A DNA stretch of 64,000 bases from an uncultured Pseudomonadales bacterium (GTDB lineage: Bacteria; Pseudomonadota; Gammaproteobacteria; Pseudomonadales; JAUIET01): positions 2,470-66,469 of the forward strand of contig CAZJDL010000002.1 in NCBI GenBank assembly GCA_964544755.1, in the 5' to 3' direction. Made by a program: the position numbers and the translations under genes. Position 1 is the stretch's first letter. Each line of letters opens with the position of its first letter. Of the stretch, positions 50,404-53,273 are shown in pieces. The notes below the pieces were generated by a model. It searched no databases, was not told where the DNA came from, and saw only the letters and a list, made by a program, of their open reading frames with translations.

Positions 50404-50419
50404 CCCGGTTTTCATATAC

Positions 50420-50560
50420 GCCAGCCGAAGGTGTTCGGCGAGAAAACCAGGGTAAAAGGAGGTAGTCGATGCCCTCAAAGAAAGTTTGCACACGTCGATT
50501 GCAGCGTTGGGCAACATGGCGTGGGTGACCGGGAATGACAAGGCGAGGTAAGGGAGCCAT
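50420..50560 (-). pseudogene. IS200/RayT-like (COG1943, HUH Y1) transposase, N-terminal fragment only
   Basis: MAPLPRLVIPGHPRHVAQRCNRRVQTFFEGIDY matches the conserved N-terminus (RLxxPGxPxHVxQRGNxRxxxFF..DY) of this family. Similarity is lost after about 45-50 codons. The HUH and Tyr regions are absent. Confidence 0.65.
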
Positions 50561-50583
50561 GCATAGACAATAACGTACATTCT

Positions 50584-50605
50584 TTTATTTAGTAAGCTGT
50601 CACCG
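50584..50605. repeat. left copy of 22-bp perfect inverted repeat TTTATTTAGTAAGCTGTCACCG
   Basis: Exact reverse complement of 52867-52888. Lies 23 bp from the start codon of the transposase N-terminal fragment. Confidence 0.9.
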
Positions 50606-50783
50606 CAACACAAAATTTCTATCAGCGATACTACACATTTCCAATTTGGAAAATCTCAAATAAGTGTGTCCGGTTTTTGTCAATCATGACAGAAGCAAAG
50701 TAATCCTTACCTACATTAACGCAAAGATTTATTCAAAGGTCTCTACATAACATAAAACTTGCCTTATCAAAAAGGAGTTAACA

Positions 50784-52772
50784 ATGGCGACTAAAGCAAA
50801 GCGAATTTCACAGCAAGCGTTAATGGAAAAATTGCGAGATATTGATATAAGCGATGAAGAGCTGGCTCAATATTTTATTGAAGATGAATCATCGACAGAT
50901 GCCTTCAACCCAACGGTAGCTCTTAATCCAAAATCAGTTGAAGATGATGGGCTAGAAGGGGCTTTTGTCCTTAATTCATTTAATTCCATCTGCCGATGGC
51001 GACGTAACCGTAAATACAAAAGACGCATAAAAAATTGGAATGGCGTACGCGTAGTTGCTGAAGGTGACTCTTGGTTTCAGTATCCGTTAATCCTTAAAGA
51101 TACTATTGATCAGCTAATTGATCTGGATAATTTTCAATACGCAATCTTAGGCTTAAGTGAAGCAGGCGACCTTCTGTCGAATATTGTTCGTGAAGATGAA
51201 ATTAGCGAAGCAATTGAAGAGCAAGACCCTGATGTATTTCTAATCAGTGCTGGCGGTAACGATATGGTTGGCAATGGCCGTCTCGCTACCATGGTTCATG
51301 CCTTTGACGAGGATCGAGAAGCAATAAATTATCCACATGAAAAATTTACCGAATTTCTAGATGGACTTGAACACTTGTACCGCAAACTGTTCAATCGTAT
51401 TTTAAGCAACAAACCTCATTTAAAAATCATTTTTCATGGCTATGACAATGTTATCCCTCAAAATGGGTCATGGCTTGGTAAACCATTAGCAAAACAAAAA
51501 ATTACTAACAAAACCCTGCAACATAAAATCCTGATAGAAATAATTAAGCAACTTAACGACCGTCTGAAAGAGATTGCCAAAGATTATCCTGGGTCTGTTT
51601 ATCACGTTGATTGCCGCGACTCGGTGGGTACTAAATCAAAATGGCATGACGAACTTCACCCAAAAAATGAAGGCTATTTTAATGTCGCCAAACTGTTCGA
51701 TGAGACTATTAAACTAGCGCTTAATGAAAAACTACCCTCCTCGCCCATCTCTGTTAATGTCCTCATCGAAACACATGAAGGCATAAAAGAGACTCCCGTT
51801 AAACTGGCTAAACTTAAACAACTGGACAATGCCAGCTTTTTAAACCTGGTGTTCGAACGAGCCAAGCGCACCTTGTCTTTGGGCGACAAAATAACGATAC
51901 CTAAAAATGAGTATGAACGTCGTCAATTAGAGTCCGATATTTCCGATCACTTTGAAAAAGTGCATAAAGAAGCAAACTTTCTGAAAAGTATCTTCCTTGA
52001 ACTTGGCGTCAAACGAGCGCAATCTGTATGCCGTATTGTGACAGATATGAGTTATGGCAGTGGCTCTTTAGTAGCTTCTCGAAATTTTGTGATGACTAAT
52101 AATCATGTCATTCCTGATTTTGCCACGGCACAAGCAAGCGTTGCAGAATTCGATTATGACGAAGATAATATTCTTTACACTGTCAACCTGGATCCAGATG
52201 CCTTTTTTATGACTAGCAAAGATCTGGACTTCACCATTATAGCTTGTGACCCCTCACCATTGCCCCTGGATATTGAAGCGATTCCACTACTGTCCAACCC
52301 TATGACGATCACTCGTAAAGAACGTGTAAATATTATTCAACACCCAAAAGGACGTAGCAAAGAGCTATCTTTGCACGATAATAAAGTAACCTATATCTAC
52401 AACAAAGTAATTCGTTATACTGCGGATACAGAGCCCGGCTCTTCCGGCTCACCTGTGTTTAATGATGATTGGGAACTAGTCGCTCTGCATCACGCTGGCT
52501 GGTCTGAAGTGGAGGGAGAAGCCACCAATGAAGGCATTAGAATTTCAGCTATTGTTGAATATTTAGTTGCTCAACAGCAAAATAATGAGTCCGACGATCA
52601 TCTCGGAATGCTAATTAGCAGCATTACGCAAGCTGAAGCTACTAGCAGTGCTATTAGTCATCATCCAACAGCTCAAAAAATCGTGCAGCCCTCTACCAAA
52701 AAACAATCCCATAAATCACTCATATTGAATGTGGAAGGTGATTTGCAGGAACTTACAATTAGGCTCAACTAA
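50784..52772 (+). CDS. SGNH/GDSL hydrolase - trypsin-like (S1, PF13365-like) serine protease fusion protein, cytoplasmic
   Basis: 662 aa, with AAGGAG 6 nt before the ATG. SGNH blocks: VVAEGDSWF (Ser96), ISAGGNDM (157-160), WHDELHP (Asp289/His292). Protease triad: MTNNHVI (His441), DLDFTIIAC (Asp482), TEPGSSGSPVFN (Ser554), followed by ALHHAG. No signal peptide or TM segment. Low GC. Confidence 0.85.
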   Translation: MATKAKRISQQALMEKLRDIDISDEELAQYFIEDESSTDAFNPTVALNPKSVEDDGLEGAFVLNSFNSICRWRRNRKYKRRIKNWNGVRVVAEGDSWFQYPLILKDTIDQLIDLDNFQYAILGLSEAGDLLSNIVREDEISEAIEEQDPDVFLISAGGNDMVGNGRLATMVHAFDEDREAINYPHEKFTEFLDGLEHLYRKLFNRILSNKPHLKIIFHGYDNVIPQNGSWLGKPLAKQKITNKTLQHKILIEIIKQLNDRLKEIAKDYPGSVYHVDCRDSVGTKSKWHDELHPKNEGYFNVAKLFDETIKLALNEKLPSSPISVNVLIETHEGIKETPVKLAKLKQLDNASFLNLVFERAKRTLSLGDKITIPKNEYERRQLESDISDHFEKVHKEANFLKSIFLELGVKRAQSVCRIVTDMSYGSGSLVASRNFVMTNNHVIPDFATAQASVAEFDYDEDNILYTVNLDPDAFFMTSKDLDFTIIACDPSPLPLDIEAIPLLSNPMTITRKERVNIIQHPKGRSKELSLHDNKVTYIYNKVIRYTADTEPGSSGSPVFNDDWELVALHHAGWSEVEGEATNEGIRISAIVEYLVAQQQNNESDDHLGMLISSITQAEATSSAISHHPTAQKIVQPSTKKQSHKSLILNVEGDLQELTIRLN

Positions 52773-52866
52773 CCGTAACTGATTAACAAAAACACAGTTT
52801 ATTTACATAAAAATTTCCATTGTCACCTTTTCACGAGGGAAAAATAACACTTAACACTACCGATTA

Positions 52867-52888
52867 CGGTGACAGCTTACTAAATAAA
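52867..52888. repeat. right copy of 22-bp perfect inverted repeat (CGGTGACAGCTTACTAAATAAA)
   Basis: Exact reverse complement of 50584-50605. It abuts (1-2 bp) the 3' end of the transposase C-terminal fragment. Confidence 0.9.
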
Positions 52889-52889
52889 C

Positions 52890-53273
52890 TCAATATTTGT
52901 TTCCGCTTTTCTTTTTTTGACCACTCTTTTACGGTTTGAGCGATCTTCCGGTCAGTTTTTCAAGCTTCTCTATGCACGCTTCGTTCCCCACCGGACGGCC
53001 GATTGTCTGAGACTGGCACAGCTGTTTGTAGACCTCATCTTCCTTTTAAACAAGGAAAGACGGAAAATCACCATAGCGCTTCAGAACCGGACGAATCTTG
53101 ACCAAGCCATCATCCTGCCCTGCAAGATGGACGGCAACACTCGACCAGGGCCAGTCCGCAGCACATTTAACCAACTTGGCCCGCACCAGGTCACGGAGCG
53201 CATAACGCACTGCATGGACAAGATGTTGATCCTCCATCGCCGAATTCGCGGAGATTTGTACGCGACGTCTTAT
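52890..53273 (-). pseudogene. IS200/RayT-like HUH transposase, C-terminal fragment with two in-frame stops
   Basis: My translation: RVQISANSAMEDQHLVHAVRYALRDLVRAKLVKCAADWPWSSVAVHLAGQDDGLV...FLV*KEDEVYKQLCQSQTIGRPVGNEACIEKLEKLTGRSLKP*KSGQKKKSGNKY*. It matches the family C-terminus (MDExHL..RYVExNPVRAxLV..DWxWSS..H..G..D; TGRPLG...lE..tGR.l.p.k.G.k). TAA stops lie at 53046 and 52929. Confidence 0.65.

Follow-up and report, generated by a model that had tools for sequence, protein, structure and literature searches.

How can a gene come to lie between two pieces of one transposase gene when these pieces stand in the wrong order for their strand and each is still joined to an arm of the same inverted repeat? 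The question is raised by a 64,000-nt stretch of DNA from an uncultured Pseudomonadales bacterium (contig CAZJDL010000002.1), which was analysed at its full length and is called here the window; positions given without a locus name are those of the window. The lysR-family regulator gene and the DUF6607 gene are convergent there, and between their stop codons lies an island of ~2.8 kb (about 50424-53244). It consists of two minus-strand transposase fragments, two arms of a terminal inverted repeat (TIR), and, between the arms, one intact plus-strand gene, referred to below as the cargo. As judged from its sequence, the transposase with its repeats would be a new member of the known TIRtron class, i.e., of the units built around a TIR-associated tyrosine transposase (TIRYT). 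The foreign gene was probably attached to the outer side of the element's ends when it came in, and it is now trapped.

The split transposase gene and its repeats

Both fragments belong to one transposase family, and their order is indeed permuted for a minus-strand gene, as the initial annotation had recognized. Neither fragment alone passes any Pfam cut-off; a search with the two joined retrieved 67 relatives, mostly of ~220 aa and bearing PF01797. When the intact 222-aa protein P0001 (37 bits against PF01797, with a cut-off of 23) was used in tblastn, both pieces matched it, the left one through residues 1-35 (from 50560 to 50456, 77% amino-acid identity) and the right one through residues 108-222 (from 53237 to 52893, 74%). 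At the nucleotide level, the stretch from 50608 to 50435 corresponds to positions 114-287 of L005, a contig with an intact unit (the fragment part to 163-287), and that from 53244 to 52863 corresponds to positions 474-858 (the fragment part to 474-831), in both cases at ~85% identity. Aligned to the full-length homologue, the pieces are complementary and non-overlapping, since they cover codons 1-42 and ~105-222, while codons 43-104 (62 codons, 186 nt) are absent. Being each ~85% identical to L005, free of overlap, and jointly short of only 186 nt, the two fragments appear to be of the same age.

The missing 186 nt contain the HUH motif. The claim that the whole central HUH/Tyr part had been lost therefore stands for the HUH motif and fails for the tyrosine, which is kept in the right fragment ('VRY'); Y119 of P0001 aligns to Y115 of E. 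coli TnpA-REP (PDB 4ER8), named as the catalytic residue of that enzyme (PMC3479197). The pieces are also somewhat shorter than had been annotated: transposase homology covers ~42 and not ~47 N-terminal codons, with a 1-nt insertion near codon 36, and ~118 C-terminal codons from 53244 and not ~125 from 53273, the segment 53273-53245 being not transposase-like. Other signs of decay include the G20C substitution in the conserved QRGNRR motif of the left fragment and, in the right one, a 3-nt deletion and two CAA-to-TAA nonsense codons (53048-53046 and 52931-52929), the same two in-frame TAA that had been pointed out before. The same arrangement with an intact gene has been found in no related genome, and a search of plasmids for close relatives found none (identity <=37%).

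The repeat is, as annotated, a perfect inverted one of 22 nt, TTTATTTAGTAAGCTGTCACCG at 50584-50605, answered by its exact reverse complement at 52867-52888. The 22-mer has only two copies in the window even when 3 mismatches are tolerated, and none in 100 shuffles; the repeat extends to 25 nt at 24/25 (50584-50608 and 52864-52888), and a looser scan of the window (<=7 mismatches to the 26-nt family consensus) still gives just these two arms. Both of them carry the rare C variant (CAGCTTAC) and are 22/22 identical, and hence both come from one source. The tip of the arm at the 5′ end of the unit reads TGTTG-CGG, the consensus being AATTA-CGG. A search of viral contigs for the TIR gave no match.

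The left arm lies 23 nt from the ATG, and the right arm begins 1 nt after the natural TGA stop (52892-52890), which agrees with the earlier reading. The contigs with intact P0001 and P0002 follow the same plan, ATTACGGTGACAGTTTACTAAATAA, 23 nt, ATG ... TGA, G, TTTATTTAGTAAACTGTCACCGTAAT, and the DNA beyond is unrelated between the two; therefore, the natural unit is TIR-gene-TIR, ~745 bp in length, with a 222-aa PF01797 gene and with CGGTGACAG at its outer tips. This spacing of the TIR (23 nt to the ATG on one side, 1 nt from the stop on the other) is common to L005, L006, and the window, and intact units are also present in L012 and L025. Of the two roles proposed initially for the arms, that of terminal repeats is thus borne out by these intact units, and that of repetitive extragenic palindromic (REP) sequences is not: a REP element is ruled out by the lack of a hairpin in a single arm (-0.5 kcal/mol, z 0.3), by the presence of only 2 copies in 64 kb, and by the absence of the GTAG tag. 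The window keeps these joints of arm to leader and of arm to stop just as intact units have them, but its tips face the cargo; thus, the cargo lies outside the unit, and the whole is a circular permutation. The polarity of the arms around the cargo, with the tips pointing inward, is opposite to that of every intact unit and of every gene-less doublet of the family.

The cargo segment is foreign by its base composition: its GC content (39%) is to be compared with 0.49 in the transposase pieces and 0.55-0.57 in the host flanks. All catalytic motifs of the encoded esterase-protease fusion are present (GDS94, GGND157, DELH289, NNH439, and GSSGSP552). The protein has 192 relatives, some with an added endonuclease/exonuclease/phosphatase (EEP) nuclease domain; in the family (with relatives P0148-P0177), those with this domain form a ~930-aa branch, and no signal peptide is evident. 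In a PADLOC search, only the protease domain of the cargo resembled a defence protein, RT-Protease_XI (E 5e-9), and the product is perhaps an effector of the defence or toxin type. Homologues at 82-91% amino-acid identity reside in unrelated contexts and share the open reading frame (ORF) alone, never the TIR; therefore, the cargo gene moves alone, and its link with a TIRtron is specific to this locus. With the HUH motif lost, the transposase gene incomplete, and the TIR tips turned inward, the island is now immobile, and the cargo is fixed as its sole functional part. The features of the locus are collected in Table 1. A scan for promoters and terminators gave matches no commoner than in shuffled sequences, and an Rfam search found nothing.

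Table 1. Features of the island and of its chromosomal neighbours (positions in the window).
Feature	Position	Strand	Basis or remark
lysR-family regulator gene, left chromosomal neighbour, intact	49507..50403	+	298-aa ORF, PF00126 + PF03466
Left spacer, lysR stop to end of transposase homology, 31 nt	50404..50434	.	not transposase-like
Left-junction hairpin GCCGAA-cacc-TTCGGC, contains direct-repeat copy 1 (GCCGAA 50424-50429, + strand)	50424..50439	-	sequence reading
N-terminal transposase fragment, codons 1-42	50435..50560	-	homology to P0001, L005
23-nt leader, TIR to ATG	50561..50583	-	AGAATGTACGTTATTGTCTATGC vs CGAATGTATGTTATTGTCTATGC in intact L005, L006
TIR arm, 5′ end of unit, tip (CGGTGACAG...) toward cargo	50584..50608	.	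repeat scan
Foreign cargo segment, 2253 bp	50609..52861	+	GC 39%; outside both unit ends
Cargo gene, intact 662-aa SGNH/GDSL esterase + trypsin-like serine protease fusion	50784..52772	+	PF13472, PF00657, PF13365
TIR arm, 3′ end of unit, tip toward cargo	52862..52888	.	GATTACGGTGACAGCTTACTAAATAA, 2 mismatches to 26-nt family consensus
C-terminal transposase fragment, codons ~105-222 + natural TGA stop	52890..53244	-	homology to P0001, L005
Direct-repeat copy 2 GCCGAA, right outer border	53239..53244	+	sequence reading
Right spacer, transposase homology to DUF6607 stop, 29 nt	53245..53273	.	not transposase-like; identical in strain variant L036
DUF6607 gene, right chromosomal neighbour, first beside haem-uptake cluster	53274..54404	-	PF20311, E 6e-73

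Relation to known systems and spread of the family

TIRYTs are described as RAYT-like tyrosine transposases bordered by TIRs, and the corresponding unit has been named 'TIRtron' (Di Nocera et al. 2013, PMC3733652; PMC6006769). With this class, the element of the window shares a ~220-aa RAYT-like Y1/HUH gene tightly bordered by TIRs and not by REP hairpins. Its TIR core, GGTGACAG, agrees at 7/8 positions with the published GGGGWSAS (one mismatch), a motif found in 'some' TIRs, the others being unrelated (PMC3733652). The dispersal of the repeat is similar to that in the class: TIR copies have been described as singles, dimers, and groups (PMC3733652), and here they are dispersed as doublets, solo arms, and tandem arms in other genomes (L011-L035), with 2 copies in the 64-kb window of the host. 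The element of the window differs: its gene is dead and cut into two permuted parts, and a passenger gene stands between its TIR tips, whereas the two TIRtron papers considered here (PMC3733652, PMC6006769), both based on sequence analysis alone, describe no cargo, permuted arrangement, activity, or intermediate. The TIRtron class is probably the same as the TnpA-Y1 subclass 2.1 of Quentin et al. (2018, PMC6006769), whose members bear a C-terminal extension resembling a helix-turn-helix (HTH), namely Bac_DnaA_C, HTH_23, or HTH_28 (PMC6006769). In contrast to that subclass, no HTH domain was matched in the C-terminal extension of P0001: a conserved extension of ~80 aa is present, but no HTH model recognizes it, and P0001, P0013, and P0028, when compared with Pfam at E<=1, gave PF01797 only.

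The IS200-like label of the initial annotation holds as far as the Y1/HUH catalytic family (PF01797) is concerned. Classical insertion sequences (IS) of the IS200/IS605 group, however, have subterminal hairpins and no TIRs, whereas this unit has ~26-nt TIRs at both ends, and the TIRYT/TIRtron class fits it better. One more likeness to IS200/IS605 is a TTAC-like tetranucleotide adjoining the TIRtron end (AATTAC directly followed by GGTGACAG); TTAC is the target of IS608. The REPtron, or RAYT-REPIN, systems, which are reportedly the subject of work by Nunvar (2010), Bertels and Rainey (2011), and Ton-Hoang/Messing (2012), resemble the present family in several respects. P0001 aligns to E. coli TnpA-REP (4ER8) with E 1e-8, the HUH motif and the tyrosine being conserved; inverted repeat copies flank the gene; and gene-less doublets make long hairpins like those of REPINs. 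In contrast to REPs, a single TIRtron arm is not a palindrome, bears no GTAG tag, and has only 2 copies in the 64-kb window. Moreover, unlike the RAYTs, which are single-copy and vertically inherited, the TIRtron has a repeat that is identical across bacterial classes and units that are multi-copy and decaying, which is the behaviour of an insertion sequence. The repeat is thus not an abundant REP unrelated to the gene: it disperses, yet it is tied to the transposase gene.

A 21-nt TIR pattern was scanned against 185,579 species genomes, which yielded 25 loci (L011-L035) in Thiobacillus, Nitrosomonas, Rhizobiaceae, Sphingomonadaceae, Methylococcales, Thiohalocapsa, Terriglobia, and other hosts. 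The identical 21-mer occurs in metagenome-assembled genomes (MAGs) of Alpha-, Beta-, and Gammaproteobacteria and of Terriglobia, and the ~26-nt TIR (consensus AATTACGGTGACAGTTTACTAAATAA) is identical or nearly so across these classes and in one contig binned as Heimdallarchaeota. Such conservation is unusually strong for the end of a mobile element and implies wide horizontal spread. The TIR loci include the intact units (L012, L025), internally deleted units, solo arms, tandem arms (L013, L025, L029), and gene-less doublets. Units are found on sub-1-kb contigs with differing flanks, and they are multi-copy and decaying; other truncated copies break at codons 26, 65, 93, 108, and 155. On the Thiohalocapsa chromosome (L017:566-4734), a stretch of 4.5 kb holds three TIRtron copies with internal deletions, and in each of them both ends are kept and a different middle part of the gene is lost.

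The gene-less doublets are 54-206 bp long, and nine of them have the same tips-out polarity as intact units. They fold into long hairpins of -31 (L019) and -21 kcal/mol and still contain ~12 nt from the 3′ end of the transposase gene; therefore, they are deletion derivatives of the unit, and by their structure they would be classed as TIRtron derivatives akin to REPINs or to miniature inverted-repeat transposable elements (MITEs). Doublets are located at L019:3121-3196, L020:5812-5911, L022:7275-7338, L030:3285-3500, L031:7251-7349, L032:1886-1984, and L033:1334-1432. Another feature of the family is that short tandem duplications of the tip and flank (such as GATATTACGGTG x2 and CACCGTAATT x2) recur outside TIR tips, for example at L005:101-124, L006:86-110, L033:1433-1445, and L034:7293-7310 and 6134-6145. 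In addition, a TTACGG-like word occurs within 25 nt outside the tip in 24/56 arms, versus 4/56 inside; it is missing at the cargo-facing tips of the window. The tip duplications may represent a footprint or a sign of self-targeting. Finally, two loci of one Thiobacillus MAG (L011:2531-2627 and L021:5168-5265) have the TIR together with 72 nt of internal sequence that is unrelated to the transposase unit and 93% identical between the two; this pair appears to be a different, non-autonomous element with the same end.

Origin of the arrangement

Because the order of the fragments is permuted, they must derive from two direct copies or from a circle; neither a simple insertion nor an inversion can give such an order. 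A TIR-bounded cargo transposon inserted into the transposase gene was rejected on account of the wrong fragment order, the contiguity of the arms with the natural leader and stop, and the opposite polarity of the arms. An inversion between the arms is ruled out by reasoning, as a crossover within the arms keeps them outermost. The reading preferred here, if only tentatively and a little short of an even chance, is that illegitimate recombination brought into the spacer, in a single piece, a block cut from a head-to-tail configuration of TIRtron and cargo. The donor would have been either a pair of direct TIRtron copies around the cargo or one copy plus cargo in the form of a circle or concatemer. 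The block would have been inserted whole into the lysR/DUF6607 spacer by recombination of an illegitimate, microhomology type, which would have left the 6-bp GCCGAA at the block borders, and the truncated outer ends of the transposase pieces would be the ends of the incoming DNA. Single-block insertion is preferred because it requires the fewest events and makes use of the border repeat.

GCCGAA has 3 occurrences in 50301-53400, and two of them coincide with the outer borders of transposase homology. The initial annotation had seen no target-site duplication outside the repeats; what can now be added is this 6-bp direct repeat, situated at the outer borders of the fragments, that is, at internal breakpoints of the gene and not at TIR tips. 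As a border repeat, it would favour insertion of a single block. The spacers on both sides (31 nt on the left, 29 nt on the right) are not transposase-like. The left one was considered as a hidden overlapping piece of transposase, which would prove two copies, and was dismissed, since its local alignment is no better than with shuffles (p 0.3-0.8). A hairpin with a 6-bp stem, GCCGAA-cacc-TTCGGC, lies exactly at the end of the N-terminal fragment and is formed with its last bases; it may be a scar of joining or a chance match.

Composite transposons and IS26 translocatable units offer a comparable layout: as here, the tail of one copy is followed by cargo and then by the head of a second, directly oriented copy, and recombination of such an arrangement naturally yields a circle of one copy plus cargo. 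Those systems, however, employ DDE transposases and complete IS copies, whereas here both copies, or the single copy, are truncated and the enzyme is a predicted HUH single-strand nuclease. At the locus, the two pieces are free of overlap (codon 42 versus codon 105), only one TIR of each kind is present, and the outer ends of the copies are absent; a two-copy case is provided by L130, described below.

A number of observations weigh against the insertion of a single block. The data fit a circular as well as a two-copy donor, and a donor structure with an intact transposase on both sides of this cargo has not been found; elsewhere, the homologues of the cargo never carry the TIR. The chance of a 6-bp border repeat is ~3%, a figure that was judged post hoc and makes the repeat weak evidence. 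Moreover, GCCGAA lies 3-8 nt inside the point at which other public contigs fork from the window (50415/50420). No empty site has been found, and hence the borders, like the single-block insertion itself, are inferred. In particular, a scan of metagenomes with DUF6607 (80 loci) gave a best identity of 66% and no synteny with lysR, and look-ups by exact protein yielded nothing but this allele and contigs that break off at the borders. Finally, one simple event does not account for the variant L036. The flanking genes of this strain have 99% identity to those of the window, and its right junction agrees to the nucleotide (L036:2610-2779 against window 53273-53104). In the DUF6607 and TonB-dependent receptor genes, it differs from the window by 20 mismatches in 2643 nt, in the 34-nt spacer by 0, and in the first transposase bases by 8 in 48 nt; left of window position 53190 there is no similarity, only 86 nt of unrelated sequence before the contig ends. 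The right-hand remnant may therefore predate the cargo or may have been converted later by a paralogous copy. Divergence rises abruptly and exactly at the junction.

Four other accounts of the locus can be set against single-block insertion, and two of them, though unlikely, deserve attention in equal measure. According to one, the first explanation of the initial annotation, the composite was built and decayed in place: two direct TIRtron copies inserted or cointegrated around the cargo, whereupon two outer deletions ran up to the edges of lysR and DUF6607. The family does cluster and nest, as seen from the three decayed units within 4.5 kb in L017, the tandem arms in L013, L025, and L029, and the nest in L130; internal deletions are frequent in it; and the right junction, being common to the window and the diverged strain L036, shows that at least that truncation is old. 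Nevertheless, at least four events would be needed, the account supplies no mechanism by which an AT-rich foreign gene could have come between two copies already resident, and a 6-bp border repeat is not predicted. Both deletions would also have to end within ~30 nt of the stop codons of the neighbours, for which selection on those genes could account. The other account assumes that an old transposase remnant beside DUF6607 recombined homologously with incoming transposase-TIR-cargo-TIR-transposase DNA, the left side being joined illegitimately near lysR. Among all the readings, it accounts best for L036, in which the DUF6607-side junction is the same, mismatches are concentrated in the transposase (8/48, against 20/2643 in the flank), and the sequence further left is unrelated; the non-homologous filler and small hairpin at the left junction also suit it. 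However, the visible anchor in L036, no more than ~50 nt long and 84% identical, is short for RecA-dependent exchange, and either allele may be the ancestral one, the L036 contig stopping after 86 nt of unrelated sequence.

Site-specific integration of the kind known for SSV1 is improbable. In SSV1-type archaeal integration, the attachment site lies inside the integrase gene, which is split on integration; by analogy, a circular TIRtron plus cargo would have carried such a site inside its own transposase gene, which is a strong form of the second explanation of the initial annotation. The likeness consists in permuted N- and C-terminal gene halves bounding the inserted DNA and in a short direct repeat at the borders, to which may be added that two diverged transposase sequences, those of the window and of L036, share the nucleotide and the codon at which they join the chromosome. 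In contrast, SSV1 uses a tyrosine recombinase and its halves abut exactly, whereas here the enzyme is of the HUH type, 62 codons (186 nt) are missing, and the left half does not end at a repeat-adjacent codon; the other truncated copies, moreover, break at other codons. Y1/HUH enzymes work on single-stranded DNA at the ends of the element and not within their own gene, as established for IS608 and TnpA-REP (PMC3479197). The least credible account of all is that of a mis-assembly across transposase copies, or of a chance match between the repeats. It could draw on several public short-read contigs that break in or beside the island (50415-50420 and 53101-53127), but several independent public assemblies (L001-L004, L040, L045) reproduce the arrangement with 99.95-100% identity, one European Nucleotide Archive (ENA) scaffold of 12,995 nt spans the island and both flanks with 1 mismatch, and other contigs cross each junction; therefore, the arrangement is no assembly artefact. 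The 22-mer pair, for its part, never arises in shuffled sequence.

Other tail-to-head cases and variation at the locus

A comparable order is observed in L130, which belongs to a divergent subfamily. There, a left end, a gene lacking codons 1-92 with its C-terminal part (93-222) preserved, and a right end are followed by 500 bp with a 142-aa ORF and then by another left end with an N-terminal part (5-26) abutting a host gene. This locus is a true direct-copy pair around a small gene and shows that two-copy arrays exist. The remnant nest (L130:7519-9123) lies beside RHS-toxin genes, and in it the TIR, the N-terminal fragment, and the start of the host gene occur twice, at 89% identity over 248 bp; the 5′-deleted unit and the 142-aa ORF stand between these two repeats. 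L034 was examined as a similar case and discarded, as both of its arms are of the 3′-end type and the copies are thus inverted. In L023, L025, and L027, pairs of arms with tips in surround 0.9-1.6 kb of small genes.

It is conceivable, if doubtful, that TIRtrons can carry passenger genes outside their inverted repeats as a tail-cargo-head module, whether as a circle, a concatemer, or a direct pair. If true, TIRtrons would be gene-capture vehicles comparable to IS26 translocatable units or to the read-through of rolling-circle ISCR elements and Helitrons, and the window and L130 would be decayed examples, each with a small accessory gene between a 3′ TIR and the next 5′ TIR. Should the module be a product of transposition or recombination, it would provide a first hint of how TIRtrons move (in circular or head-to-tail forms) and a first hint that they spread accessory, possibly defence-type, genes. 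Substrates for biochemistry are at hand in the ~26-nt ends invariant across bacterial classes, the hairpin mini-derivatives, and the recurring duplication of the end tips. If only decay is involved, the locus is an ordinary pseudogenised mobile element beside a horizontally acquired gene. In any event, it is an odd fossil of a little-studied element and not a new kind of system, and its arrangement may be mere decay.

The population around this locus is variable. Public Logan contigs from other samples end at 50415 and 50420, which suggests a structural fork in the population, and short-read contigs from five runs start or stop at 50386-50420 and 53101-53127 (L002-L004, L039, L041, L043, L044). 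The occurrence of contig ends at both places points to structural variants or to repeated copies in those communities. Taken together, the L036 allele and the contig ends at 50415-50420 and 53101-53127 indicate that the locus is polymorphic. Finally, in L037 (9280-12336), where a 73%-identical DUF6607 gene adjoins the same haem-uptake cluster, a Tn3-family transposase (DDE_Tnp_Tn3) is located downstream of DUF6607, and mobile DNA may land at this place repeatedly.

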